Source: Thermoanaerobaculia bacterium
GTDB lineage: Bacteria; Acidobacteriota; Thermoanaerobaculia; Gp7-AA8
NCBI GenBank assembly: GCA_034665065.1
Contig: JAXDGL010000008.1
Coordinates: 319,412 to 383,411, forward strand
DNA: 64,000 nt
Reading direction: 5' to 3'
Positions 851 to 60,500 of the stretch are shown piece after piece. A program made the position numbers and the translations under genes. Numbering within the stretch: the stretch's first letter is position 1; the number at the start of each line of letters is the position of its first letter. Under the pieces are notes generated by a model. It was not told the DNA's origin, searched no databases, and worked only from the letters and a program-made list of their open reading frames with translations.

Positions 851-916
851 TCTTTCGCGCTGTCTTACCGCGGCGGAATGAATCGTGTAATCAGCCCCAG
901 CCGAAGGAGTTTTCAA

Positions 917-2821
917 ATGGCCGAAGTCAAATCACAGGGTGCCGTCGATGCGATGGATGTCGCCGAGGGTGCGCGCGAGACCGAGTGGGAAAAGCCGTCG
1001 TTTGTTGGGGATCTTTTTCTCGGCAAACTCAATCTCGATCTGATTCATCCGTTCCCCGAGCAGCCGGAAGCGGATCGCGCAGAGGCCGATGATTTTCTTG
1101 CGCGCATGGAGCGATTCCTCGCGGAGAACGTCGATGCAGAGAAGATCGATGAACAGGGCGAATACGACTACTCGCTCTTCGACGGACTGAATCAACTCGG
1201 CGCCTGGGGCATGAAGATCCCGAAAGAATATGGCGGCCTTGGATTCAGCGCCACGAACTACAACCGCGCCATCGGACTCGTCGCGACGTGGTGCGGATCG
1301 ACGGTGGCCTGGCTTTCCGCGCATCAGTCGATCGGCGTTCCGCAGCCGCTCAAACTCTTCGGTACACCCGAGCAGAAGAAAAAGTATCTGCCGCGTCTCG
1401 CCAACGGAGCGATCTCCGCGTTTGCCTTGACCGAGCCGGGCGTCGGATCGGATCCGGCTAAGATGGAGACGACAGCAACCAAGTCACCCGACGGCAAGGG
1501 CTGGATCATCAACGGCCACAAGCTCTGGTGCACAAACGCCACGAAGGCCGAGCTTCTCGTGGTCATGACGCGTACCGCTCCGAAGATCGTCAACGGCAAA
1601 GAGAAGAAACAGATCACAGCGTTCATCGTCGAGACGAACAGTCCAGGGTTTTCGATCGAGCATCGCTGCCAGTTCATGGGGCTGCGCGGCATCGGCAACG
1701 CCCTGATCAAGTTCGACAACGTCTACGTTCCGAATGAGAACCTCCTCTGGGGAGAAGGCCTCGGACTCAAGCTCGCGCTGATCACGCTGAACACAGGTCG
1801 CCTCACGATTCCTGCCGGTTGTGCTGCGGCGGGGCGAAAGATGGTCGACATCGCCAAGGACTGGTCGAATGAGCGCGTGCAGTGGGGCGCTCCAATCGGC
1901 AAGCATGAAGCCGTGGCAGCGAAGATCGCCTGGATGGCGTCGCACACGTTCGCGATGGAAGCGATCGTCTGGCTGACGTCCGGTCTCGCTGATCGCGGCA
2001 ACGTCGATCTGCGGCTCGAAGCGGCGATGGCGAAACTCTTCAACACCGAAGTAGCGTGGACGATCTCCGATCACCTCGTGCAGATCCGCGGCGGACGCGG
2101 ATATGAAACGTCGCAGTCGCTGCGCGCACGTGGCGAGAAAGCCTATCCGGTCGAGCGGATCATGCGCGACATGCGCATCAACCGCATCTTCGAGGGCACG
2201 AGCGAGATTCAGCACCTCTTCATCGCCCGCGAGGCAGTCGATCCGCACATGAAGCGCGGCTTCAAGATCCTCCAACCCGAAACCCCGACCGGCGAAAAGA
2301 TCAGCGCCGCGGCGAAAGCGGGCCTGCACTACGCCGGCTGGTATCCGTCGCGCTACCTCGGCTGGTCGCGTTTCCCGAAGTTCAGCGAGTTCGGCAAGCT
2401 GACGGGACACATGGGCTACATCGAGCGCACGTCGCGCCATCTCTCGCGCTCGATCTTCCACGCAATGATGCGCTTTCAGGCGAAGCTCGAGCGCAAGCAG
2501 ATGGTGCTCTTCCGCATCGTCGACATCGGCACGGACCTCTTCGCCATGGCTGCAGCAATCAGCTACGCCACGATGCTCGCCAAGAAAGGCGGCGCCGAAA
2601 AGAAGAACGCCGTCGACCTCGCCGACGTCTTCTGCCGCGAAGCGCGCATGCGCATCGACGCGAACTTCCACAATCTCTTCACCGATCACGATGACGCGGC
2701 CTACAAGCTCGTGATGAACCTACTCAAGGGCGAGTTCGACTGGTTCAAAGGCCAGGTCGTCGAAGAGCCTGTGATGCCGACTCCGGAACAGATCGAAGAG
2801 GCGATGGCGAAGCTGGCGTAA
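917..2821 (+). CDS. long acyl-CoA dehydrogenase (~634 aa, FadE-like)
   Basis: ACAD family motifs (GLRGIGNALIKFDNVYVPNENLLWGEGLGLKLALITLNTGRL; C-terminal FEGTSEIQ). The ORF track starts at 878; the ATG at 917 has a strong AAGGAG RBS 10 nt upstream. Confidence 0.85.
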   Translation: MAEVKSQGAVDAMDVAEGARETEWEKPSFVGDLFLGKLNLDLIHPFPEQPEADRAEADDFLARMERFLAENVDAEKIDEQGEYDYSLFDGLNQLGAWGMKIPKEYGGLGFSATNYNRAIGLVATWCGSTVAWLSAHQSIGVPQPLKLFGTPEQKKKYLPRLANGAISAFALTEPGVGSDPAKMETTATKSPDGKGWIINGHKLWCTNATKAELLVVMTRTAPKIVNGKEKKQITAFIVETNSPGFSIEHRCQFMGLRGIGNALIKFDNVYVPNENLLWGEGLGLKLALITLNTGRLTIPAGCAAAGRKMVDIAKDWSNERVQWGAPIGKHEAVAAKIAWMASHTFAMEAIVWLTSGLADRGNVDLRLEAAMAKLFNTEVAWTISDHLVQIRGGRGYETSQSLRARGEKAYPVERIMRDMRINRIFEGTSEIQHLFIAREAVDPHMKRGFKILQPETPTGEKISAAAKAGLHYAGWYPSRYLGWSRFPKFSEFGKLTGHMGYIERTSRHLSRSIFHAMMRFQAKLERKQMVLFRIVDIGTDLFAMAAAISYATMLAKKGGAEKKNAVDLADVFCREARMRIDANFHNLFTDHDDAAYKLVMNLLKGEFDWFKGQVVEEPVMPTPEQIEEAMAKLA

Positions 2822-2844
2822 CGTGGAACGCATATAATCGGCGC

Positions 2845-4065
2845 ATGCTCAGCTCGCCCACGCCGCTTCTGCGGCGCGTAGCCATCGAGAATTTCAAGAG
2901 CATCGCAAAGTGCCGCGTAGATCTCGCTCCGCTGACGATCCTCGTCGGGCGCAACGGTTCTGGTAAGAGTAACTTTCTCGACGCACTGAAATTTGTTGCC
3001 GACGCGCTTCAGACGTCACTCGATCACGCGATCCGAAGCCGAGGAGGTATCGACGATGTGCGCCGTCGAAGCACCGGCCATCCCCGAAACTTTGGGATAC
3101 GTCTGGAGCTTCTTCTTCCAAACCTTCATAGGGCGGACTTCACATTCGAGATTGCCTCTCGTCCCGGAGGATCGTTCGCCGTAAAGAACGAAGAGCTTAA
3201 TGTAGTTTCGCCGAGCGGCTCGAAAACGGCAAATTATCACCGCGAGGAAAGGAGGGTTTCTTCCGAGAGCCATACAACAATGCCTCCTGTGCTCGACGAC
3301 CGCCTCTTTCTCGTCAACGCCGCTGGCCTTCCGGAATTTAGGCCCGCATATGATGCCCTCGTTGCGATGGGTTTCTATAACCTTGATCCCGAAGCGATGC
3401 GGGAGCCGCAGGCACCCGACGCTGGAGAGTTGTTGCATCACGATGGAAGTAACATTGCCAGCGTAGTGGGACGTTTGTCGGCACATCCGTCGGACGTTTT
3501 AGCTCGGATCAGTGACTACCTCCGGCACATTGTTCCTGCCGTCGAAAGTCTAGAGCGAGCACCTCTTGGACCGCGCGAGACGTTGCAGTTTTTGCAGAAG
3601 GTAAAAGGCTCTAAGTACCCGTGGCGTTTCTATGCCTCCAGTATGTCGGACGGCACGCTTCGGGCTCTCGGCGCGCTTGTCGCGGTTACACAATTTGCGG
3701 AAGGCGCACAGACGGTGCGACTAGTTGGTATAGAGGAACCTGAAACCGCACTTCATCCTGCCGCCGCTGGAGCGCTTATGGATGCCTTAAGGGAGGCGAC
3801 GAAACACACTCAGGTGATTGTGACCACGCATAGTGCCGATCTGCTTGATCAAGTCGATATCGATCGTGACGGGCTGCTGGTTGTCGTGTCGACAGACGGC
3901 GTCACCAGAATCGCCCCGGCGGATGAAGCTAGTATCAACGTTGTTCGTGAGCATCTCTACTCAGTCGGTGAACTGCTGCGAGCGGATCAACTTGTCCCCG
4001 ATCCTACAAGTCTCGAAGAACAGGATCAGCTGGAGTTGTTCTCAACCGGCACCGCGGCCCAATGA
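2845..4065 (+). CDS. ABC/OLD-type AAA ATPase (AAA_21/AAA_15-like)
   Basis: Walker A VGRNGSGKSNFLDAL near the N-terminus. Walker B/D-loop region RLVGIEEPETALHP and TTHS near the C-terminus. Architecture matches ATPase subunits of OLD/PARIS/AbiL/Gabija-like systems. Confidence 0.8.
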   Translation: MLSSPTPLLRRVAIENFKSIAKCRVDLAPLTILVGRNGSGKSNFLDALKFVADALQTSLDHAIRSRGGIDDVRRRSTGHPRNFGIRLELLLPNLHRADFTFEIASRPGGSFAVKNEELNVVSPSGSKTANYHREERRVSSESHTTMPPVLDDRLFLVNAAGLPEFRPAYDALVAMGFYNLDPEAMREPQAPDAGELLHHDGSNIASVVGRLSAHPSDVLARISDYLRHIVPAVESLERAPLGPRETLQFLQKVKGSKYPWRFYASSMSDGTLRALGALVAVTQFAEGAQTVRLVGIEEPETALHPAAAGALMDALREATKHTQVIVTTHSADLLDQVDIDRDGLLVVVSTDGVTRIAPADEASINVVREHLYSVGELLRADQLVPDPTSLEEQDQLELFSTGTAAQ

Positions 4066-4649
4066 GCCGCTTGGCCGTCTTCCCGATCGTCGAAGGGCAC
4101 GGCGAAGTCGAGTCGATTCGCACTCTGGTTACGCGCATCTGGACGGAACTTCTCCATCAGGACTACGTAGTTGTCTCGCGTCCTTTGCGCATTCCTCGGT
4201 CGAAAATCACGAAGAGCGCCGAGATTCGCCGGGCTGTAGAGCTCGGCCGCCGGAAGTTGCAATCCGAGCTCACGGATCGCCGACTGGTCCTTGTACTTTT
4301 CGACGCAGACAATGATTTGCCGTGCAGGATTGCGCCCCAGGTTCGCTTGCTTCTGCCTGACCCTGGAATCGACGTCAGCATCGTGGTGGCCAATCTGGAA
4401 TACGAGACGTGGTTCGTCGGTGCCGCAGAGTCGCTGAGCGACTTCATCGATGTGCCAGCTCATGTTCCCGATTCACCTGAGACAGAGCGGTGCCGCAAAG
4501 GTTGGGTCGAGCAACGAACGAAGTCAGGGCGATACAGCGAAACGATCGACCAGCCGAGGTTCACTGCTCGGATGGATCTCATCGCCTGTCGCAGACGGTG
4601 CCCTTCGTTCGACAAATTATGCCGTGAGCTGTTCGCTTACACCGTTTAA
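4062..4649 (+). CDS. TOPRIM-like (DUF4276-type) partner protein
   Basis: 195 aa. Start overlaps the ATPase stop (ATGA, translational coupling). Conserved Glu in FPIVEGHGE and LVLFDADND (DxD) resemble a TOPRIM catalytic core. Family assignment is from memory of DUF4276-like proteins. Confidence 0.65.
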   Translation: MSRLAVFPIVEGHGEVESIRTLVTRIWTELLHQDYVVVSRPLRIPRSKITKSAEIRRAVELGRRKLQSELTDRRLVLVLFDADNDLPCRIAPQVRLLLPDPGIDVSIVVANLEYETWFVGAAESLSDFIDVPAHVPDSPETERCRKGWVEQRTKSGRYSETIDQPRFTARMDLIACRRRCPSFDKLCRELFAYTV

Positions 4650-4870
4650 TCCCGAATCTTTTCTTCGTCATCCGCCGTCTCGCTTCCCTTGTACGTCGCC
4701 AGACAGTCGCCGCACAACATGTCGCTGTTGTTGTCGCCGGGTGCGGGAACGAAGCCGTCACGCTGCACGACTTCGAGGAAACAGGCCGTGTACTCCTCAG
4801 GCATCTCACCGCGAACGCTCGCGGTTCGGCCGCAGTCGCGGCATCGAAGGAGCGTCTGCCCTTCCATCAC
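4646..4870 (-). CDS. small zinc-ribbon protein
   Basis: 74 aa with CRDCGR…CGDC (two CxxC pairs). Its start overlaps the stop of the upstream peptidase gene by 4 bp (ATGA). Confidence 0.45.
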   Translation of the reverse strand: MMEGQTLLRCRDCGRTASVRGEMPEEYTACFLEVVQRDGFVPAPGDNNSDMLCGDCLATYKGSETADDEEKIRD

Positions 4871-6582
4871 TTTTCTCCGGCCGCGGGAAAGACGGGTGTG
4901 ATGTCGACGGGGATGTCCTTCAGCGTCGCGTTGACTGCGGCCATCTCCGGCGTTTCCTTTCCGTAGCGATCGAGCAGCGCTTTCGCGCGCGGATAGTCAC
5001 CCGTCGCTTCGATCGTCAACAGTTCCGTGGCGAGATCGCGGACTGCGTCGCGCGATTTCGCGAAGTCGACGGTGAAGCGGCCGCCCGCGATCGGCGTGAC
5101 CGCGCCTTTCTCGCGCAGCCAGTTCCACTGAATCGCGGTACCGCGTCCGTGCGCTTCTCCGACTCCGAATCGTGTCGAGCGGAACATGAGGCCGGCGTAG
5201 GTCGCCAGCAGTTGGCGTTCATTGAAGGCAGTGACGAGTCCGTGCTGCTGTGCATAGAGAAGATTCCAGACGCCGAGAACGTCGGCCTTGCACTCTTCGA
5301 CGGTCGAGAAAAGCTCTTTGAGCGGGATGCGTACCTCGACGCGTTTGCCGTCCGCTTGCGTCAGGAATCCTGGCCCGAGGCCGTGGGAGAGCTCGTGGAA
5401 GAGAACGTGATTGAAGAACGCATCGAACGAGACGAGACTTTGCAGCGACGAATCGAGCACGCGCGCGGCGATCGGCTTGCCGCTCTGCCGGAACTTGGCA
5501 TCCATCACGTTCTTGAGCAGGACTTTCTTCGAACCTTTCTTCTCGCGCACCACTTCGTCGTTCGGCAGATTGAACGCCGCAGTCTGCACGCCGTTGCGCG
5601 CGTCGCCGGCGGTGTAGAGCTCCTGCACGACTTTGATCGGCGACTCGCTGCCGCGGTTGGGATTCTTGTACTGCTCCGGCTCCGGCAGATTCTTCTCCAT
5701 GTCCGGAAGCGCCTTCGCATACGCGGCGAGCTTCGCGCTTTCGGGTTTATCGACGACGGTCACGAACGACTCGTACGACGCTTTGTAGTTGAAGAGATTG
5801 TCTTCGTAGACTTCGTACGGACCGATGACGACTTCGATGTTGCCGGCGAGGTCCATCCAGGCCATGTCACTCTCTCGATAGTTGTCGGAGAGCAGCGCGT
5901 CGGCGCGGGCGGAGAGAAAGCGCTTCAGCGTTGCATCGGTCGTGATCGCCGCGGCCTCGCGAAGATTTTGCGCAGCCGGCTTCAGGTAGTCAGCGTAGTA
6001 GGCGGCGTACGGAATGCCGACGAGGTTCGTACCATCGCGCCGGACGACGGCGAAGAGTCCCTCCAGCTCCTCCTTCTGCGATGGATGCGCGGCAACGTAG
6101 CGCTCGAATTCATCCTTCGTGATGTCGGACGGATAAAACGCGGCGCCCGGCGGCTTCGCGCCTGCGGTTCCGAAAGGCGCGATGAACGGCTCGTCGCTCT
6201 TCAATCGGTCCCAGCGGCCTTTGTTGGCGATGAAGTAGTCGAGAGCCGCTTTCTGGAGTGGCCCTCCAGCGCTGGCATCGCCGAGCTTTTTCAGAAGCAG
6301 CGGATTCTCTTCGCTGACCTGTCGCCAGTAGATCTCCTCGATTTGCTTCGACGCCTCGATCAGCTTGGCCACGACCTGACGCTCATTGTCATTGAGCAGC
6401 GCGTGGTCGTAGTCGATGACCGTGCGCGGAAGCTGGGCCATGCGCTGCGCCGTATCGGGCGCGATCGGGGATGACGCAGCCGCCGTTGATGGTGTTGCCG
6501 CCGGAGCGGTTGACGTCGGAGTGGTTGCTGTCTGGCACGCCGTGGCGGCGGCAGCAATGAGGAGGATCAGTCGTTTCATCAC
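4867..6582 (-). CDS. secreted/lipoprotein HEXXH zinc metallopeptidase (DPP-III/M49-like)
   Basis: N-terminal signal with lipobox-like …AATACQ, a Thr/Ala/Pro-rich linker, and an FHELSHGLG HExxH motif. 571 aa. Confidence 0.7.
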   Translation of the reverse strand: MMKRLILLIAAAATACQTATTPTSTAPAATPSTAAASSPIAPDTAQRMAQLPRTVIDYDHALLNDNERQVVAKLIEASKQIEEIYWRQVSEENPLLLKKLGDASAGGPLQKAALDYFIANKGRWDRLKSDEPFIAPFGTAGAKPPGAAFYPSDITKDEFERYVAAHPSQKEELEGLFAVVRRDGTNLVGIPYAAYYADYLKPAAQNLREAAAITTDATLKRFLSARADALLSDNYRESDMAWMDLAGNIEVVIGPYEVYEDNLFNYKASYESFVTVVDKPESAKLAAYAKALPDMEKNLPEPEQYKNPNRGSESPIKVVQELYTAGDARNGVQTAAFNLPNDEVVREKKGSKKVLLKNVMDAKFRQSGKPIAARVLDSSLQSLVSFDAFFNHVLFHELSHGLGPGFLTQADGKRVEVRIPLKELFSTVEECKADVLGVWNLLYAQQHGLVTAFNERQLLATYAGLMFRSTRFGVGEAHGRGTAIQWNWLREKGAVTPIAGGRFTVDFAKSRDAVRDLATELLTIEATGDYPRAKALLDRYGKETPEMAAVNATLKDIPVDITPVFPAAGEK

Positions 6583-7254: not shown

Positions 7255-7537
7255 TTGATTGCGCTTCGCGCGTTGTCGGTTGTCGGTTGGTTGCGCTTCG
7301 CGCGTTGTCGGTTGTCGGCGCTTCGCGCCTTTTCTAGAACGATCCTGCCCCGTCTTGGGCGGCGAGTATTCCAAGCATGAAGAGTTCGATCAGCTCCCGA
7401 ATTCGACACTGGCGCAGACAACGCGCGAAGCGCAATCAACCGACAACCGACAACGCGCGCAGCGCAATAAGACAACGCGCGAAGCGCAATCAACCGACAA
7501 CCGACAACGCGCGAAGCGCAACAAGCGCAGCGCAATA
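7255..7537. repeat. composite direct+inverted repeat of a ~36-bp GC-rich unit
   Basis: Unit TTGATTGCGCTTCGCGCGTTGTCGGTTGTCGG occurs twice in direct orientation (7255-7328) and twice as reverse complement (7419-7537). Can fold into a long hairpin with a ~90-nt loop. Confidence 0.8.
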
Positions 7538-7553
7538 CCGATACACTCTCCGC

Positions 7554-8345
7554 GTGGACGCACTCCGCACGCTCTATCGCTATCGCCAGCTCATCGCGGC
7601 GCTCACCGCGCGCGATCTGAAGGCGCGGTACCGCGGCTCGATCCTTGGCTTTTTTTGGTCGCTGGCCAATCCGCTGCTCCTTCTGGCCGTCTATACGATC
7701 GTCTTCACCTTCTTTTTTCCGTCGAGTCTCATTCATCCCTATCCGTTGTTTCTCTTCTCCGGAATCCTGCCGTGGACCTTTTTCTCGGCGGCGGTACTCG
7801 AGTCGACGTCGGCGATCTCTTCGAACGCGGGGCTGATCAAAAAGGTGATGTTTCCCGCGGAGGCGCTGCCCTTGGTGACGGTGGCATCGCATCTGGTTCA
7901 CTTCGTTCTCGCCATGCCCGTCCTTTTGCTGGCCACGCTTGGCTTCGCGCTGCATGGCGACATTACGATCACCATGAACATCCTACTGGTGCCGCTGCTC
8001 ATGATTCTGCAGACGCTCTTCGTCGCCGGCATCGCCATGACCGTGTCGTCCGCGTCAGTGCTCTTTCGCGATCTGCGCGACATCCTCACGAACCTGATGC
8101 AGCTCGGATTCTTCGTGACGCCGATCCTCTTTCTGGTCGACCGCGTTCAGTCGCGCCCTCTCCGTGCGCTGCTGCGGCTCAACCCGATGACGCCCTTCGT
8201 CGTCTCGTATCAGGACGTGCTTTTCTTCGGACATCTGCCGGGCATCGCCGACATTCTGCTGATCCTCACGTACGCATTCGGATCGCTGGCGATCGGCGTG
8301 ATGGTGTTCGGCAGGCTGCGCGACACGCTGGCCGAGGCAATCTAG
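7554..8345 (+). CDS. ABC-2 type transporter permease (Wzm/KpsM-like polysaccharide exporter)
   Basis: LRTLYRYRQLIAALTARDLKARYRGSILGFFWSLANPLL is the typical ABC-2 N-terminus, followed by six predicted TM helices. The ORF track starts at 7377 inside the repeat region; the GTG at 7554 is the likely start. Confidence 0.8.
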   Translation: MDALRTLYRYRQLIAALTARDLKARYRGSILGFFWSLANPLLLLAVYTIVFTFFFPSSLIHPYPLFLFSGILPWTFFSAAVLESTSAISSNAGLIKKVMFPAEALPLVTVASHLVHFVLAMPVLLLATLGFALHGDITITMNILLVPLLMILQTLFVAGIAMTVSSASVLFRDLRDILTNLMQLGFFVTPILFLVDRVQSRPLRALLRLNPMTPFVVSYQDVLFFGHLPGIADILLILTYAFGSLAIGVMVFGRLRDTLAEAI

Positions 8346-8406: not shown

Positions 8407-8606
8407 AAAATGTTGAATGTTGAATGTTGAATGTTGAATGTTGAGTGTTGATCGTGCGCCGCCATCCTCCGTTCGTTCAACACTCAATACTCATCATTTA
8501 CAATTTAATGAATCCAACATTTAATATCCATCATTTAACATACAATATTAACATCCGCCATTTAACACTCAACATTTAACATTCAACATTCAACATTCAA
8601 ATGTTC
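8407..8606. repeat. AT-rich imperfect palindrome built from TTGAATG heptamer arrays
   Basis: 5x tandem TTGAATG (8409-8445) and its reverse complement CATTCAA x3 (8580-8606) flank a ~120-bp AT-rich core carrying repeated CATTTAACA-like motifs. Sharply lower GC than surrounding DNA. Confidence 0.8.
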
Positions 8607-11940: not shown

Positions 11941-13282
11941 CCTGGGACCGCGGGCGTCCCGCCCGCATTCGACGCCTCCAGTGCTGAGATTGATAGTCGC
12001 GCTTCTCCTCGCCACATCGGCTTACGCGCAATCGGTCATCCCGAACAGTCCCGGCAAGAAACCGACCTTCGCCATCCGCAACGCCACGATCGTTCCGGTG
12101 ACTTCGCCGCCGATCGCGAACGGCACGATCGTCTTCGCCAACGGCGTCATCACGGCCGTCGGCGCCAACGTCACCGTTCCCGCGAACGCGACCGTCATCG
12201 ACGGAACGGGCCTCTTCGTCTATCCCGGTCTCATCGACAGCGGCTCGCATGTCGGACTCGAAGAGATCAGCGCCGTTCCCGGCACCGTCGACACCGCGGA
12301 GTTGGGCGATATCAATCCGAATGCGCGCGCCGAGGTTGCGGTGAATCCGCATAGCAACGTGATACCGGTGACGCGCGTGAACGGAATCACAACTGTCGTC
12401 AGCGAGCCTGAGGGAGGCATCATCTCCGGCTCGTCGGCGATGATCCAACTCGCCGGATGGACGCCGCAGGAGATGACGCTCAAGGCGCCGCTGGCGATGC
12501 ACATCCACTTCCCGCGCTTGCGGACCAATGCGTTCGACGAAGTTCCGCAGGATGAAGAGGCCACGAAAGAAGCGGCGAAGAATTACACGAAACAGATCGA
12601 CAAGCTGCGCGACACGTTGCGCGACGCGCAGGCATACGGGCGGGCATCCGCGGCGCGCACGAATCATCCAGAGATCAAGCGCGTCGATCGCGATTTGATG
12701 CTCGAAGCGCTCGTTCCGGTCGTCGAAGGACGCGAACCGGTGGTGATGCACGCGAACCTGGAGCGCGATATCCGTGCGGCGATCAAGTTTGCCGATGAAT
12801 TCAAATTGAAAGTGATTCTCGCTGACGCCGAAGATGTGGCGAAGGTCATTCCCGAACTGAAGTCGCACAAGATCCCGGTGATTCTCGGGCCGATCCTCTC
12901 GATGCCGCCGCGCGAAGACGATCCGTACGATCTCGTCTACGGCAACGCCAGGACGCTGTTCGACGCGGGCATTCCGTTCGCGATTCAGTCGCTCGATGCG
13001 CACAACGCGCGCAATCTACCGTATCAGGCCGCTGCGTGCGCGGCGTTCGGGTTGCCGAAAGAGGAAGCGTTGCGCGCGGTGACGATCGCGCCCGCGCAGA
13101 TTTTCGGGATGGCCGATCGAATCGGATCGCTGGAGGCGGGGAAGCTGGCGAACATCATCGTCACGGACGGCGATCCGCTGGAGATCGTTACGCACGTGAA
13201 GCGGCTGTTCATCGGCGGGGAGGAGATCTCGCTGGAGACGAACCAAACGTTGCTCTACGAGAAATTCAAGGCGAGGCCGTGA
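11933..13282 (+). CDS. secreted amidohydrolase-family protein (paralog 3, HxH degenerate)
   Basis: Overlaps paralog 2 by 8 bp. [15 protein letters not shown] (SH instead of HxH). C-terminal [16 protein letters not shown]. Confidence 0.8.
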
Positions 13283-13298
13283 AGCCTCTCGGCGGTCA

Positions 13299-13386
13299 CC
13301 AGTGATCAGTGATCAGTGATCGGTGGTCAGAAAGTCAGGACGCTGGATAGCGATTCCTGATCTGGTCACTGATCACTGATCACTTG
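13299..13386. terminator. hairpin of inverted AGTGATC heptamer arrays
   Basis: AGTGATCAGTGATCAGTGATCGG … CTGGTCACTGATCACTGATCACT, immediately after the amidohydrolase 3 stop. Confidence 0.55.
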
Positions 13387-13400
13387 ATTGTCGCTTCGTG

Positions 13401-13460
13401 GGCGGAGATTCCTCGCCACCCGCCGCTCCGCCCGCTCGGAATGACAGCGAGAATGACAGC
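13401..13460. repeat. family A MITE half-copy
   Basis: GGAGATTCCTCGCC…CGCTCGGAATGACAGCGAGAATGACAGCG matches the right half of the family A element. Confidence 0.6.
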
Positions 13461-13497
13461 GCAAAATTCGGCGCGCTGCGTGTGAGAGATCGTGTCG

Positions 13498-13632
13498 TCA
13501 GCGATAGATCATCGCCGCTGTCGCCGAGATGATGAGCGACGCGGTCCAGAGGATCGTGAATACACGCCACGATTGCCGGCCGCTGCGTAGATCGAACGAT
13601 GTTTCGCTAACGAACTGCTTGATCTGGGTCAT
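13498..13632 (-). CDS. 44-aa hydrophobic peptide (hypothetical)
   Basis: Not in the ORF track (<60 aa). MTQIKQFVSETSFDLRSGRQSWRVFTILWTASLIISATAAMIYR. A GGAGAA RBS lies 6 nt upstream, directly downstream of the 13672-14007 gene on the same strand. Confidence 0.3.
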   Translation of the reverse strand: MTQIKQFVSETSFDLRSGRQSWRVFTILWTASLIISATAAMIYR

Positions 13633-14007: not shown

Positions 14008-14169
14008 GCCCTGGACATACTCCAAGGGCGGTACCATGCAAGAATCTCAGTAGAATCAACGACTTAGTAAATCGTGCGCGATTTGAACGTCGCGAAATCA
14101 GACAGAGTGTCCTGATATCGTACGGTGAGAGATTCGCCTGATCGCGTGTATAGTCCGCCCAGTTCTTTC

Positions 14170-14335
14170 CCAATTTCTCTGAGTCAGTGAACGGGAAGCC
14201 GGTGTGATGCCGGCGCGGCCCCCGCCACTGTGACCGGCGACAACTCGCTCCACGATAGCCACTGCATCTACCGATGCGGGAAGGCGGCGCGACGAGGATG
14301 ACCCGGAAGCCAGGAGACCGGCTGGCTCGGAACCC
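14170..14335 (+). ncRNA. cobalamin (AdoCbl) riboswitch
   Basis: GGGAAGCCGGTGTGATGCCGGCGCGGCCCCCGCCACTGTGACCGG … GGGAAGGCGG … B12 box GAAGCCAGGAGACCGGC, directly upstream of the btuB-like receptor. Confidence 0.8.
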
Positions 14336-14371
14336 ACTTTTGATTCTCTTCTTCGGAGGGAAGGAGTCGTC

Positions 14372-16204
14372 ATGAAGCGTGTTCTCGCTGCGTCTCTGCT
14401 TTTTGCTGTTTCCTCGTTCGCTCAATCCACCCCACAACCCGTAACCATCAACGACCAGATCGTCGTCACTGCCTCGTCGTTACCGGAGACCTTGCAGGTC
14501 ACTCCTGCCGCTGTCAAGGTCATCACGCGTGCCGACATCGCCGCGCGCGCCGCGCGCGATGTCGCCGACGTTCTTCGCGAAGTTCCCGGCCTCGTGCTCG
14601 CGCGCAGCGGCTCGCCCGGCAAAGCGACCTCGCTCTTCACGCGCGGCGCGGCGTCGACGCAGACGCTCGTCCTCTGGAACGGGATCGCGTTGAACAATCC
14701 CTATTTTTCCGGCTACGACTGGGGACGTTTTTCGACCGCCGGCGTCGAACAGATCGAAGTCGTACGCGGACCCTACTCCGCGCTGTACGGTTCAGAAGCG
14801 ATGGCGGGAGTGATCAACGTATTGACCGCGCCGCGCACGAGCGCCGTTCATGGCGACTTCGAGAGCGGTAGCCATGGCTTGCGCAATGCCGCGCTCAACG
14901 CGACGTACGCCGCGGAAACGATCCAGGCCGCCGGCAGCTACGAGCATCGCGCCGATGATGGTTTCAACGCCAATGACGATTTCCGCCAGAACAGCGCCGG
15001 CGCGAACGCGAAATGGATTCCGTCCGACTCCTTTTCCATCGGCGCTTCCGGCCGCCACACTTCCTACGACCTCGGCATCCCCTTCAACACAAATGCCGCA
15101 GGCACCGCACTCGTGCCGAGCCTCGATCGCCGTCAGAGCGGGACGGAGACGCAGATCGCCATTCCGGTTAGTCTGACGCTCGGCCGCTTCATCAGCGATC
15201 TGACGCTCTCCGACAATCATCGCCGCGATGATTTCTCCGATCCTGCCGATCCGTTCACGACATCGACGTCGACCGATGCGAAGACGCGCCGCGCACGCTT
15301 GACGACGCGGTTTGTTACATCGGTAGGTACGATCGTCGCCGGCGGCGAGTACGAGCGCGACCTCGTCAGCGACGTCACCAACTACGGTCCGAATTTTCTC
15401 GCCAAGCGGCGCACCGATCACTCCCTCTTCATCGAAGACCGCTATTCGCATCCCATCAGCCAGACCACGCACTTCGAGCTCAGTGCCGGCGTCCGGCGCG
15501 ACCGCTTCGATACGTTCGGTGGACAGACGTCACCGCGCGTCGCCGCGGCCATCGTTCGAGGAACGACGAAATGGCGCGCCGCCTATGGCACCGGCTTCCG
15601 CGCTCCCTCCCTCGGCGAGTTGTACTACCCGTTCTTCGGTAACGCCGCGCTGAAAGCGGAGTCCAATCGAAGCTATGAGATCGGCTACGACGCGCCGATG
15701 GGACGCGACGGACTCTTCTCGCTGACATACTTCAACAGCCGTTACCGCAATCTCATCACCTTCGATCCCGTCACGTTCATCTCGCAGAACATCGGACGCG
15801 TGCGCGCCGACGGCGTCGAGGTCGGGATCACCAATCAGGTGAGCGCGAACGTCTACACCGCCTTCAGCTACACGTACCTGCATCGCGACGAAGATGAGAA
15901 GACCGGCCTGCGCCTGCTCCGCCGCCCGAAGCACTCCGGATCACTGGCGACCGGCTATCGCAACGGCGCGATCGACACGAACATCGCCATCCTCCGCACC
16001 GGCGAGCGCGACGACTCGCAAGCCGTTCTTCCATTCGGCCGCGTAACCAACAAGTCCTACACGACGATCGACGTCAACGTGCAATACCACATGGCGCACG
16101 TCTCCCCATTCGTAAAGATCGAGAACCTGCGCAACACGGCGTACCAGGAAGTCGTCGGCTACGCATCGCCGGGGCGAAGAGTGATCATCGGCGTGAAGTT
16201 CTAA
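14372..16204 (+). CDS. btuB: TonB-dependent outer-membrane cobalamin receptor
   Basis: Signal peptide, TonB-box/plug region (DQIVVTASS…VVRGPYSALYGSEAMAGVINVLT), C-terminal beta-barrel ending in F. Preceded by the B12 riboswitch. Confidence 0.85.
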   Translation: MKRVLAASLLFAVSSFAQSTPQPVTINDQIVVTASSLPETLQVTPAAVKVITRADIAARAARDVADVLREVPGLVLARSGSPGKATSLFTRGAASTQTLVLWNGIALNNPYFSGYDWGRFSTAGVEQIEVVRGPYSALYGSEAMAGVINVLTAPRTSAVHGDFESGSHGLRNAALNATYAAETIQAAGSYEHRADDGFNANDDFRQNSAGANAKWIPSDSFSIGASGRHTSYDLGIPFNTNAAGTALVPSLDRRQSGTETQIAIPVSLTLGRFISDLTLSDNHRRDDFSDPADPFTTSTSTDAKTRRARLTTRFVTSVGTIVAGGEYERDLVSDVTNYGPNFLAKRRTDHSLFIEDRYSHPISQTTHFELSAGVRRDRFDTFGGQTSPRVAAAIVRGTTKWRAAYGTGFRAPSLGELYYPFFGNAALKAESNRSYEIGYDAPMGRDGLFSLTYFNSRYRNLITFDPVTFISQNIGRVRADGVEVGITNQVSANVYTAFSYTYLHRDEDEKTGLRLLRRPKHSGSLATGYRNGAIDTNIAILRTGERDDSQAVLPFGRVTNKSYTTIDVNVQYHMAHVSPFVKIENLRNTAYQEVVGYASPGRRVIIGVKF

Positions 16205-42718: not shown

Positions 42719-42795
42719 GCTCCCGTAGCTCAATCTGGACAGAGCGGCGGTCTACTAAACCGACGGTGTGGGTCCGAGTCCCACCGGGAGCGCCA
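42719..42795 (+). tRNA. tRNA-like gene with atypical anticodon (parses as ACU)
   Basis: Cloverleaf: acceptor GCTCCCG/CGGGAGC, D-arm GCTC-AATCTGGACA-GAGC, anticodon arm GCGGT-CTACTAA-ACCGA (G27·A43 mismatch), T-arm GTGGG-TCCGAGT-CCCAC, discriminator G, CCA. The short variable loop is inconsistent with Ser. Confidence 0.55.
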
Positions 42796-56750: not shown

Positions 56751-56835
56751 TCGAGTTGATTATGACGAGAAGGTTCCGACCTGCAAGGCGAGGCCGGTGA
56801 ATGGTTGGTTTCGGGTGATGAATGGTTGGATCTTG

Positions 56836-56998
56836 CGGTTGCGCGGTTGCGCGGTTGCGCGGTTGCGCGGTTGTGAGGTTACGGAGTTGCGAGGTTTCTG
56901 AGTAGATCCTTCGCAGCAACCCAGCAACCCAGCAACCCGGCACCTCAGCACCTCAGCAACCAACAACTCAGCAACCGCGCGAGACCGCAACCCACTGC
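56836..56998. repeat. imperfect palindrome of GGTTGCGC octamer arrays
   Basis: GGTTGCGC x4 + GGTTGTGAGG… then inverted CAGCAACC x3, CAGCACCT x2…. Confidence 0.7.
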
Positions 56999-57027: not shown

Positions 57028-57125
57028 GGAGGCGAATGGGGTCTGGTGGCTCCCGCGGTCTTCAAAACCGTTGTTTCGGCGCGGAAGCGTCGAAGGGTCG
57101 GTTCGATTCCGACGCGCCTCCGCCA
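57028..57125 (+). tRNA. selC: tRNA-Sec (selenocysteine, anticodon UCA)
   Basis: 98 nt. Acceptor GGAGGCG(A)/GCGCCTCC, 6-bp D-stem with 4-nt loop (GGGGTC-TGGT-GGCTCC), anticodon loop CTTCAAA (UCA), long variable arm, T-arm GTCGG-TTCGATT-CCGAC, discriminator G, CCA. Confidence 0.8.
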
Positions 57126-57527
57126 TCTAAAACCCTCGCTCCCAAGTCGTCAGAACCCTAGTCTCCCTCGACGTCACCTGAGGCTCGGCGCTGCCTTCGC
57201 TGCGAGCGCTTAATCGCAAAATAACCTTCCGTTCGCCAAAACTTAATCCCCATGGTCCGCAAACGGCCTCACTATGACCGATGTGTGGTTGTGTGTCCAT
57301 TTTTATATAGTATTTTTGGAAACTAGTCCTTAAGTTCATTCTGATACTGCTGCCGTAATAACGCACGTATCTATATGAAAATAAAGGACTTGCACTTTTT
57401 AAACGAACTGCTACAGTGCCCTCCCCAAAGTCGACACGATCGGCTTAGGTCCAATCCAAATAACTCACGAAACCCCTGTAAAAGGTCATCGCGCCTGCAT
57501 CTGGCGCTACCCACAAAAGGAACCCGA

Positions 57528-60500
57528 ATGAAACGAGCTCTTCCCTTTCTTCTTTTGTCGCTTCTTCTCGTCGGATCGCTCGATGCCGCGCCAGGTCGCC
57601 GCCACAAGAAAGTGGCGCAGTCCGAGGTTACGGTGGAGGCGGAGGTGGAGGCAGGCAAGGCGCTTCGTGCCGCCGTTGGCGAGAGGGAGAGGAAGTCGAA
57701 TGAGGATACGGGTACCATCGTAGCCAAGCCGGTGCCGATTCCGTTTGGACCCCCGATTGAGCTGCAACTGAAGCGCGCTGACAGCCGCAAGTTCGATCTG
57801 CGCTCCCTCCCAAGGACGCAGCCGGTACAACAGGAGCGCGCGGAGCTTCCGGAGCCGGCGTTCCACCCTGTCACCGTCCAGGCGACTGGTGTTCCGCCGA
57901 CGGCCAATCTGCCCGCTGTGCCTCTTCCATCGGCTCCGGCGCCACCGCCGATCGCAGTCTACGAGGGGCTCGATCGTTTCAATTGGGGAGCCGGCAGTCC
58001 TCCCGATACGAATGGTGACGTCGGTCCGAACAACTACATTCAGACCGTCAACTCCTCGATTGGCGTGTACCGGAAGTCCGACGGCTTCCAGCAGGCGGCA
58101 TTCACGTTCAACACGTTCATGAGCCAGGGCAACTTCGGCAATCTGTGTGACACCAACAATTTCGGCGATCCGGTCGTCCTCTACGACACATTCGAAGACC
58201 GCTGGATCATCACGGACTTCGCGTTTGTGCTCGACGGCGGCGGCAATGTGGTCGCTCCTGCCTACCAATGTTTCGCTGCCTCGATGACTGGCGATCCGGT
58301 CGCCGGCGGGTGGAACTTCTACTCCATCCAGATCTCGGATGCTCTCAACGATTATCCGAAGTTGGGCATCTGGCCGGACGGTCTTTACATGTCCGCGAAC
58401 ATGTTCACCTTCGGCGCCGGCTCCGCGTTCACGAGCGCCCGCGCCTGGGCCTTCAACAAGGCGCAGATGTATGCCGGAAGCCCGACCGTGAAGGTGGTCT
58501 CCTTCAACATTCCCGGCGGCGATTTCACGGTCATCCCCAGCAACGCACGCTTGCAGACAGGCACGCCGCCACCCGGGCGTCCCAATCTGTTCACCTCCAG
58601 CTGGCTCTTTACGAACGCTCTGACCGTCTATCAGTTCCACGTTGACTGGAACAGCATTTCGCAGTCGACGTTCACGGGCCCGGATACACCCATTGCCGCT
58701 ACGAGCTGGCCGAACGCTGCCGTCGCGAACGCCGCGCAGCCGGGTACGGCTACGCTCCTCGATGTCCTTCAGATCCGCGCCATGGTGCAGAACCAGTACA
58801 CGAACTTCGGCGGCACCGAGTCGTTGTGGATCCCTCATACGGTTCGCCGAGGAAATACGAGTGGATTCGCTGCGCCGCGCTGGTACCAGGTGAACGTCAC
58901 CGGCGGCGCGGTCAACCCTGCTATCCCACAAGCGGCGACGTGGGATCCGGACAATGCCAACGTCGTCAATCGCTTCATGCCCAGTCTGGCGCTTGACCGG
59001 GCCGGGAACATGGCCATGGGCTACAGCACCTCGAGTGGGACGGTCTTTCCCTCGATCATGTATGCGGGCCGGCTGGCAGCCGATGCGGTCAATACCTTCA
59101 GCCAGACCGAGCAGACGTTCTTTACCGGCACCGCTTCACAAACAGGTACGACTCGATGGGGTGACTACAGCGCTATGACGCTCGACCCGGACGGTTGTAC
59201 GTTCTGGTACACGACCGAGTATGCAAATCCGGCGGACCAGACCTTTAATCATCGCTGGCTGACCAAGTTCGGCTCGATCGGAGCATTCCCCGGATGCACC
59301 CCGGTTGGAGCGGGTGGTACGGTTTCCGGTACGGTGACCGCCGCGGCCGGCGGCGCGCCAATCAGCGGCGTCACGGTGCAGTTGGGCGCGGGGCGTTCGA
59401 CGACCACTGACGGCTCGGGCAATTACTCGTTCACCAGCATTCCCGCGGGCACCTACCCGACGATAACCGCGAGCAAACCAGGATTCGTCTCAGGATCCGC
59501 GTCGTCGATCGTCGTCACTGACGCCGGCACCACGACGCAGAACTTTTCGCTGGCCGCTGCTGCGTCGAGCTCCTGCCTCACCGACACCACACAGTCCGAT
59601 TTCTTGACTGGCGTTACTTCCGCAACCGTCGACATCAACACATCTCCCGGCGACGTCACATTGTCCAATGCACCGACCTCTGACCAGGCGAACACCGCCG
59701 GCACGACAACCGGAACCGGCTTTGGCACCCCTGCCTGGACCGGTCAGACCTTCATCGCGGGAGTCAGCGGTCTACTCGTGAAAGCCGATGGCCAGCTCTT
59801 CTGCAACGGTTGCGGCGCGACACCTCCGGACCTCACGCTTTCCCTCCGCGCGACTTCGGCTGGTTTGCCGACAGGCGCTGATCTCGCCACCGCGACGGTC
59901 CTCGGTGCGCAGTTTGCCAGCGGTGCGTCCGTCCTCTTCACGGCGACCTTCGGCTCGCCGGTCTCGATCACTTCCGGAACGCAATACGCTCTGGTCCTGC
60001 GGCCGGTCTCCGCTCCGGCGGGCTCCGGCTATTTCTGGATTCGCTCTTCGCCGAGCACGTACACCAACGGTTCGCGTGTTCTGTCGGCCGACAGCGGCGG
60101 CACATGGTCCGCCGATACCACGCGCGATTACAACTTCAGAACGTACGTTCAGGTCGGCTATGCAGCAGCAGGCAACTTCGTGTCGTCTCCCAAGGATTCC
60201 AATCCGGGAGGCGGACTGACGCCGATCTGGTCGACGTTCTCATGGAACGGTTCCACTCCCGCGAATACATCGTTGCAGTTCCAGCTCGCCGGATCGAATA
60301 ACGTCAACGGACCGTTCAACTTCGTCGGACCGGACGGCACCGCGGGAACATTCTTCACGACCTCACCGGCGCAGCTCTCGCCCCAGTTCTACAACTTCCG
60401 GTTCCTCGAGTACAAGGCATTCCTTGCCACCACCGATCCCAACGTCACGCCCACGCTCAGCGACGCCACCACCTGCTTCAACGACGTCGATTGCAGCAGT

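Follow-up and report, generated by a model that had tools for sequence, protein, structure and literature searches.

A stand-alone HEC-01 gene pair in a soil Thermoanaerobaculia genome: a candidate ATPase–TOPRIM defence module at a variable chromosomal site

A 64,000-nucleotide stretch of a Thermoanaerobaculia metagenome-assembled genome (MAG; contig JAXDGL010000008.1, positions 319,412 to 383,411; hereafter the window) carries two overlapping genes whose products are deposited as 'hypothetical protein' (MEA2163414.1 and MEA2163415.1). Judged by profile matches, the pair is a stand-alone chromosomal copy of the two-gene HEC-01 module in a soil member of the Thermoanaerobaculia (Acidobacteriota), consisting of an ABC-type ATPase (HEC-01A) and a DUF4276 protein (HEC-01B). 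It is a further member of an already named, uncharacterised candidate family and no new kind of system. Comparison of orthologous loci shows that the pair is accessory, and a role in defence appears to us the most probable one. These assignments provide an HEC-01A/B annotation for two 'hypothetical' proteins and extend a candidate defence family to soil Acidobacteriota.

Both proteins match HEC-01 models end to end

The ATPase gene (gene 1; 2845..4065, + strand) encodes 406 aa and the DUF4276 gene (gene 2; 4062..4649, + strand) 195 aa; both are open reading frame (ORF) calls with an ATG start. Their ATGA stop/start overlap (4062..4065, + strand), read from the sequence, indicates translational coupling. 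The initial annotation had placed two ORFs with this overlap here and had quoted two motifs from each product; both ORFs and all four motifs are present, with GRNGSGKS at residues 35–42 and IEEPETALHP at residues 296–305 of the translated ATPase, and IVEGHGE at residues 9–15 and LFDADND at residues 79–85 of the translated DUF4276 protein.

In Pfam, the ATPase matched AAA_21 over the whole profile (2.9e-30) and AAA_15 (1.5e-22), and gene 2 matched DUF4276 (E 1e-10, 42.6 bits against a cut-off of 30.2) over profile positions 1–191 of 192. The PADLOC-DB protein models were scanned directly rather than through the full PADLOC pipeline. The ATPase matched the HEC-01A model PDLC04178 (E 4.8e-157, 521 bits), with residues 1–400 aligned to profile positions 1–395 of 399, and gene 2 matched the HEC-01B model PDLC04196 (E 5.1e-55), with residues 5–190 on profile positions 3–188 of 197. 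Twelve HEC-01A/B models were matched at E <= 1e-30, PDLC04178 and PDLC04196 being the specific sub-model pair. Because both proteins match the HEC-01A and HEC-01B models end to end, we assign the pair to HEC-01; by these matches it has every sequence-level feature of the family, that is, an A-model protein, a B-model protein, and adjacent, co-oriented genes. The profiles anticipated in the initial annotation were thus recovered (PF13304 and PF13175 for gene 1, DUF4276 for gene 2), and the PADLOC scan was positive in substance, with both proteins assigned to a candidate system.

By its published definition (Payne et al., bioRxiv 10.1101/2024.01.29.577857; PADLOC-DB v2), HEC-01, for 'Hma-embedded candidate 01', pairs an ABC ATPase with a TOPRIM protein whose metal site resembles that of OLD. 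It was found embedded in Hma (helicase-methylase-ATPase) loci, and its authors required or expected their candidates to be common outside Hma (bioRxiv 10.1101/2024.01.29.577857). DUF4276 itself has been placed in the Toprim superfamily, with Mad4 of MADS as a homologue (PMC12065111), and the PARIS paper counts MADS3-4 and AbiL among the systems that combine an ABC ATPase with a TOPRIM protein (PMC11464382).

Other PADLOC models matched the ATPase more weakly (AriA 2e-30, AbiLi 4.9e-25, mad3 7e-25, Old 3e-23). Among the PADLOC-DB models, gene 2 gave no AriB match at E <= 1 and no mad4 or RloB-type match, and no NCBIfam model reached its cut-off, MAD3 (NF047739) scoring 115 bits against a required 420. 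The initial annotation had pointed to an ATPase coupled to a separate TOPRIM-like DUF4276 protein with the logic of PARIS, AbiL and OLD, and had proposed a candidate PARIS/AbiL/split-OLD-like module. The profiles bear out this architecture and the general logic is shared, but membership in these systems is not: since there is no DUF4435, RloB, fused-TOPRIM or mad4 signature, the pair is not PARIS, AbiL, OLD or MADS, and its family is HEC-01.

HEC-01 is widespread, with more than 7,000 close ATPase homologues (at least 7,274 at E <= 1e-10 in a database search) and about 2,800 DUF4276 cluster representatives (2,768 at 50% identity, matched by the DUF4276 profile at E <= 1e-3). A database search with the DUF4276 protein found more than 1,100 homologues. 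The top 150 DUF4276 representatives are all stand-alone proteins or fragments of approximately 130–250 aa, mostly about 200 aa.

The ATPase retains the catalytic motifs of an ABC head

Among 37 ATPase homologues, G35, G40, K41, S42, Q189, S268, G270, E297-E298-P299-E300 and H329 are invariant. These residues include the Walker A motif (G35-x4-G40-K41-S42), the ABC signature (S268-x-G270), the Walker B and catalytic glutamates (E297-E298) and the H-loop histidine (H329). An AlphaFold2 model (predicted local distance difference test score, pLDDT, 86) shows an ABC head without a coiled coil. In a Foldseek search, the nearest structures were PtuA (Septu, retron Ec78/Eco7), Rad50 and SMC heads, with E values of approximately 1e-13 to 1e-11, and partial matches were found to Pfam SMC_N and NCBIfam RecF. 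By its profile coverage and predicted fold, gene 1 encodes a full-length AAA_21/AAA_15 ABC-type ATPase that is Rad50/SMC-head-like.

Three substitutions at positions with at least 90% conservation across the family occur in the ATPase of a relative, L015 (8784-10004): G38E, which makes the Walker A loop GRNESGKS, D269Y within the signature motif, and W260F. The core G-x4-GKS is intact. Because this core is kept and the ratio of nonsynonymous to synonymous substitution (dN/dS) is low, these substitutions are probably tolerated variants.

The DUF4276 protein has a TOPRIM-like layout of conserved acidic residues

Conservation in gene 2 was assessed in 42 homologues with 49–85% identity. E11, G12, G14, D81, A82, E115, W117 and F118 are invariant, as is a C-terminal block (S182, F183, D184, L186, C187, R188) within a conserved helical region that ends in a PSFDKLCREL motif. 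Conservation is at least 90% for E113 and at least 70% for D83, where some members have E, H or N instead. Taken with the ATPase alignment, this conservation shows that, at the level of sequence, the catalytic motifs are intact and conserved in both proteins.

An AlphaFold2 model of the DUF4276 protein (pLDDT 93) has the order β1(3-10)-α-β2(35-38)-α-β3(73-81)-α-β4(104-110). E11 lies directly after β1, D81-A82-D83 directly after β3, and E113-x-E115 after β4. The layout was read from the order of secondary-structure elements along the chain, not from the order of strands within the sheet. We regard this as a TOPRIM arrangement because a Glu follows β1, a DxD follows β3 and an ExE follows β4. The acidic signature attributed to gene 2 in the initial annotation is thereby sustained: layout and residues E11, D81 and E115 are all found in the model and the alignment. 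By analogy with characterised proteins of this arrangement, gene 2 is predicted to encode a TOPRIM-like metal-dependent nuclease. The DUF4276 family profile gave nothing meaningful against all PDB chains, the best match being a glycosyltransferase (E 1.9).

The two genes form one unit, probably with its own promoter

The DUF4276 gene lies close behind the ATPase gene in 19 of 19 loci from several phyla, joined by a 4-nt overlap (ATGA or GTGA), a 1-nt overlap, or a gap of at most 10 nt. Pairwise identities of the two proteins correlate across 13 loci (r = 0.93). These data indicate that the two genes are strictly paired, coupled and co-evolving. When compared with the 85%-identical relative L015, both genes gave a dN/dS of about 0.07, and because of this low ratio we conclude that both are under purifying selection and that the pair is functional rather than decaying.

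Scanning the surroundings of the pair for the sigma-70 consensus yielded no full promoter. A -10-like hexamer emerged only from locus comparison: in all six pair-carrying loci of the Thermoanaerobaculia lineage, TA(T/G/C)AAT ends 6–11 nt before the ATPase start, and the rest of the spacer 5' of the gene has diverged among them. In the window, the putative -10 hexamer is TATAAT (2833..2838, + strand), 6 nt before the ATPase ATG (2845). Since the conserved hexamer is so near the start codon, the comparison suggests that the cassette has its own promoter and is read from a leaderless or near-leaderless mRNA.

The pair occupies a variable chromosomal site

The pair is preceded by an acyl-CoA dehydrogenase gene (878..2821, + strand), whose stop codon is only 23 nt 5' of the ATPase gene, and is followed on the opposite strand by a 74-aa Cys-rich ORF (4646..4870, −) and an M49 peptidase gene (4867..6582, −). 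The unrelated metabolic and peptidase neighbours reported in the initial annotation are therefore as described, with the Cys-rich ORF in addition. GC content is 0.555–0.59 over the pair and approximately 0.59–0.65 in the flanks, a shallow dip only. A search for direct or inverted repeats flanking the cassette returned short chance matches only, and neither an integrase nor a transposase accompanies the cassette in the window.

We surveyed the same junction in 80 related metagenomic loci, of soil Thermoanaerobaculia type, with an orthologous acyl-CoA dehydrogenase (80–96% identity). A site was scored as empty when the dehydrogenase stop lay within about 330 nt (usually 10–100) of the small ORF, the M49 gene or an FHA gene. 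The junction was empty in 45 loci, held another insert of 0.5–5 kb in 15, and carried the ATPase–DUF4276 pair in 3 (L067, L090 and L101); in the remaining 17 the contig ended too early or the locus was rearranged. All 24 loci with the closest dehydrogenase (92–96%) are without the pair. Where the pair is present, identity to the window copy is 65%, 45% and 64% for the ATPase and 53%, 49% and 49% for the DUF4276 protein in these three loci, despite a dehydrogenase identity of 81–84%. Because most orthologous loci have an empty site, the pair is accessory and patchily distributed at a variable chromosomal site. This agrees with the inserted cassette envisaged in the initial annotation.

Two further relatives, L015 (a 1.45-Mb contig) and L019, carry the pair at the same place and in the same gene order as the window: GTP cyclohydrolase I, acyl-CoA dehydrogenase, ATPase, DUF4276 protein, M49 peptidase and FHA protein. 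On this synteny we considered the pair as core genome tied to the dehydrogenase, and the 45 empty sites among 80 rule this out. Identities of the pair proteins are broadly like those of the flanks in syntenic relatives. At synonymous sites, the proportion of differences (pS) from L015 is 0.61–0.63 for the pair and 0.42–0.47 for the flanks, which is a hint that the alleles are older or were laterally replaced, with weaker codon bias as the alternative.

These data bear on whether the pair might instead be a housekeeping complex for DNA repair or nucleic-acid processing, a RecF- or Rad50-SbcCD-like ATPase with its nuclease, whose resemblance to defence systems is incidental. Rad50 and SMC heads among the nearest folds, the partial SMC_N and RecF matches, strong purifying selection, the ordinary chromosomal genes around the pair, and stable synteny with flank-like amino-acid divergence in three relatives would all fit such a role. 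A repair complex would, however, hardly be missing from 77 of the 80 loci with orthologous flanks, including every one of those with the closest dehydrogenase, nor would highly divergent alleles at one site and the raised pS of the pair be expected. The ATPase also lacks a coiled coil or any other SMC/Rad50 hallmark beyond the head, and every NCBIfam repair equivalog falls far short of its cut-off. We therefore consider a repair function very unlikely.

Outside this lineage, the pair was again found between unrelated genes, among others in an uncultured Planctomycetales MAG, Thiodictyon and Rhodospirillaceae, with flanks such as GFO_IDH/semialdehyde dehydrogenase, glycosyltransferase/thioesterase, or a TIR_2 protein/CoA-binding protein. 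A Streptomyces plasmid copy is flanked by insertion sequence (IS) elements. In an unrelated lineage, a 472-aa TIR_2 protein is encoded directly upstream of the pair (L023 5107-6525 and L024 401-1819), the only defence-like neighbour of the pair in any context examined.

Could the pair be an orphan fragment of a larger system, either Hma with its embedded cassette or mad3-mad4 of MADS, and so either not work at all or work only with partners encoded elsewhere? HEC-01 was discovered inside Hma loci, DUF4276 is homologous to Mad4, and the ATPase has partial matches to mad3 and MAD3. Yet each independent locus examined has the pair on its own, with unrelated genes on either side, the HEC-01 authors required candidates common outside Hma, and no helicase or methylase lies near the pair within the window. 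The MAD3 score, the lack of a mad4 match for gene 2, and a dN/dS that speaks against decay likewise argue against a fragment, and we regard this explanation as highly improbable.

The commonest other insert at the junction is a radical SAM/SPASM gene. Further inserts encode a patatin-like protein, a DUF676 protein with a Kelch protein, and secreted proteins of unassigned family. The only PADLOC match among this cargo was that of the radical SAM protein, which also has a SPASM domain, to pVip models (3e-12) over the radical SAM core. A dedicated defence hotspot was considered and rejected, the other cargo having no meaningful PADLOC match; the junction is a variable spot and not a dedicated defence island.

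A more tentative idea, which we think unlikely, is that the dehydrogenase/M49 junction in soil Thermoanaerobaculia is an integrase-free, repeat-free recombination hotspot. It would keep anciently diverged HEC-01 alleles as a presence/absence and allelic polymorphism, with their own leaderless-type promoters, in alternation with other cargo such as radical SAM/SPASM. The excess of pS in the pair over its flanks and the presence of three allele classes (45–85% identity) at one site are the hints in this direction. If true, a defence locus that is exchanged via flank homology would be under balancing or diversifying selection. Irrespective of this idea, the series of empty, occupied and other-cargo sites at one junction documents the accessory status of the pair and offers matched flanks for a study of gain and loss. 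The added value of the present analysis lies in this empty-site evidence, the annotation, and the -10 hexamer conserved 5' of the ATPase gene.

Further observations concern the neighbourhood itself. The 74-aa ORF (4646-4870, −) has CxxC...CxxC motifs and no Pfam match; its start overlaps the M49 peptidase stop and its stop overlaps the DUF4276 stop. It is kept at 46–86% identity in many relatives (for example L032, L036, L037, L046, L069 and L078). In several relatives, the radical SAM/SPASM gene (485–540 aa) lies directly 3' of this ORF on the same strand, in the position taken by HEC-01, and radical SAM gene and HEC-01 were never seen together at the junction; the 74-aa ORF and the radical SAM/SPASM gene may be a peptide plus maturase pair. 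In L015, a BrnT/BrnA toxin-antitoxin pair (13028-13557) lies just past the FHA gene, about 2.4 kb from HEC-01, with no counterpart at that place in the window.

Proposed function

Taking the evidence together, we think it reasonably probable that the pair defends its host against phages or other mobile elements as a nuclease module gated by the ATPase. Complex formation, a nuclease activity with its substrate, a trigger and a defence phenotype are inferred from the analogous systems PARIS, OLD, Gabija and Septu. A single transcript, probably from the cassette's own promoter and with little or no leader, would yield both proteins in fixed proportion, and the ATPase and DUF4276 protein would form a complex. 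The ATPase would dimerise, cycle on ATP, and serve as sensor and switch, its ATP-dependent head engagement responding to a phage or foreign-DNA cue. It would then license or release a Mg2+/Mn2+-dependent TOPRIM nuclease, either by PARIS-like sequestration and release or by OLD/Gabija-like activation inside the complex. The nuclease may cut invading DNA, or host or phage RNA such as tRNA, and this cleavage would block propagation of the phage or mobile element, possibly via abortive infection. Cleavage of tRNA, as by PARIS, rather than of DNA is a possibility.

Several observations weigh against a defensive nuclease. In the fold of gene 2, a Foldseek search of the DUF4276 model against the PDB gave no match at E <= 1e-3; such a search alone is non-discriminating, generic Rossmann-like folds scoring equally high. 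A Pfam scan of gene 2 found no TOPRIM-family model besides DUF4276, and hhalign of the DUF4276 alignment against P2 Old returned a probability of 0.4%, an uninformative value given the single-sequence template and the low depth of the query (effective number of sequences, Neff, 2.6). As to its setting, the pair is syntenic in at least three diverged relatives, so that part of the lineage appears to inherit it stably. It has no other defence genes, integrase or repeats flanking it in the window, and the other cargo at its junction is not recognisably defensive by PADLOC. It is also rare on mobile elements: it was found in 3 of 72,556 plasmid records, a DUF4276 relative was found in 1 of 50,697 phage records (an 'UNVERIFIED' scaffold on which the ATPase is also present), and a pattern scan of IMG/VR for DUF4276 relatives found none. 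Finally, the HEC-01 representative of the defining study protected E. coli from no phage tried (bioRxiv 10.1101/2024.01.29.577857).

The last result also fits a selfish addiction module of the toxin-antitoxin (TA) kind. In such a module the ATPase would restrain a TOPRIM toxin, and post-segregational killing or stabilisation of the genome, instead of any net protection against phages, would maintain the pair; alternatively, its targets would be plasmids or other mobile elements rather than phages. The compact, translationally coupled layout, the patchy distribution and the Pfam label of AAA_21, which mentions a type IV TA toxin, are consistent with this, as is the lack of enrichment near other defence genes, which the HEC-01 authors report for most of their candidates (bioRxiv 10.1101/2024.01.29.577857). 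Against it, one HEC-01 cluster in a later study did protect E. coli B against at least one of T4, T5 or T7 (PMC12881386), so that the published evidence for a defence role of other HEC-01 representatives is mixed. In addition, all catalytic ABC motifs are kept, as would be expected of an active switch more than of a passive antitoxin, and the studied pairs of ABC ATPase and nuclease (PARIS, Septu, Gabija) are defence systems. The two readings overlap, abortive-infection systems often being TA-like. Overall, we consider an addiction module unlikely and favour the defence module.

Other features of the window

The rest of the window is ordinary chromosome, encoding TonB-dependent receptors, TPR proteins, peptidases, an aldehyde oxidoreductase and a histidine kinase. 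A cobalamin riboswitch (14168-14340, + strand, 113 bits) lies immediately 5' of a TonB-dependent receptor gene (14372-16204), which is probably a B12-regulated uptake gene.

A tRNA gene (42719-42795, + strand) was detected by Rfam above threshold (59 bits), with an encoded CCA end, and was called tRNA-Ser with anticodon ACT by ARAGORN. It has a 77-nt class-I body with a short variable arm and the anticodon loop CU-ACU-AA. Bacteria do not usually read AGY/AGR codons with an A34 anticodon. Possible explanations are a tRNA-Arg(UCU)- or Arg(ACG)-like gene whose anticodon has changed and a MAG consensus error. A tRNA-Sec gene is preceded by two opposed 8-nt repeat arrays, GCGGTTGC x7.8 and CAGCAACC x8 (window 56835-56976 and 57028-57125, + strand).

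Repeats also occur closer to the pair. Tandem repeats of 32 and 54 nt form two blocks of opposite orientation (7255-7328 and 7416-7525), lying just 5' of and overlapping the start of an ORF (7377-8345), and they give rise to repeated 'RQRAKRNQPTTDNARSA' peptides in the ORF translations. A low-GC intergenic segment (GC content 0.46–0.48; 8409-8600) consists of heptamer repeats, six of AATGTTG and twelve of the inverse CAACATT. A 1,851-aa protein (57375-62930, + strand) has CarboxypepD_reg, Ig-like, PKD, TIG and dockerin domains, and its gene contains a 237-nt tandem repeat (3.9 copies, 83% identity; 60739-61666).

Comparison with known systems

The closest solved folds to the ATPase are those of Septu and retron PtuA (Foldseek E 4e-14 to 1e-11). 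TM-scores are only 0.42–0.50, however, PtuA is approximately 100 residues longer, and its partner is the HNH nuclease PtuB and not a TOPRIM protein.

An ABC ATPase combined with a TOPRIM nuclease is also found in OLD (P2 Old, BpOLD), Gabija GajA and AbiL. In Old and GajA both domains lie in one polypeptide, and Gabija additionally needs the UvrD-like GajB, whereas the window encodes two separate ORFs with no adjacent helicase gene, which rules out class 1 OLD and Gabija; the Old and GajA models cover only the N-terminal P-loop and Walker B regions of the ATPase. AbiL differs in that AbiLii is an RloB-type (PF13707) protein (PMC11464382, PMC12065111). Gene 2 has no RloB match and the ATPase matches AbiLi only at the E value given above, so AbiL was likewise rejected.

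MADS contains the same domain pair, Mad4 being a DUF4276 homologue and Mad3 an AAA_15/21 ATPase. Membership was rejected on the sub-threshold MAD3 score, the missing mad4 match, and the metabolic neighbourhood, in which no other MADS genes (for example a methyltransferase) are adjacent.

PARIS shares with the window pair an AAA_15/21 ABC ATPase, a separate TOPRIM nuclease and co-evolving genes. It differs in that AriB is a DUF4435 TOPRIM protein of approximately 35 kDa, compared to 22 kDa for the DUF4276 product of gene 2, and in that the HEC-01 family is rare on phages and satellites. Gene 2 matched neither PF14491 (DUF4435) nor, at E <= 1, any AriB model, and PARIS membership was therefore rejected. 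Two AriA models did match the ATPase (2e-30 and 2e-24), the better one scoring 105 bits compared to 521 for HEC-01A. Its match has the same span as that of Pfam AAA_21 (residues 30–335 on positions 1–304 of 304) and looks generic; no AriA chain was found at E <= 0.001 in a PDB sequence search or among the 50 best Foldseek matches. PARIS is nevertheless the best mechanistic template, in which AriA scaffolds AriB and frees it on sensing a trigger.

The likeness to HEC-01 is the closest. The window copy differs in its setting, lying outside an Hma locus between acyl-CoA dehydrogenase and M49 peptidase genes in an acidobacterial MAG. Its organisation is that of HEC-01: an ABC ATPase gene followed on the same strand by the gene of a small TOPRIM-like DUF4276 protein, with the same predicted OLD-like acidic metal site.

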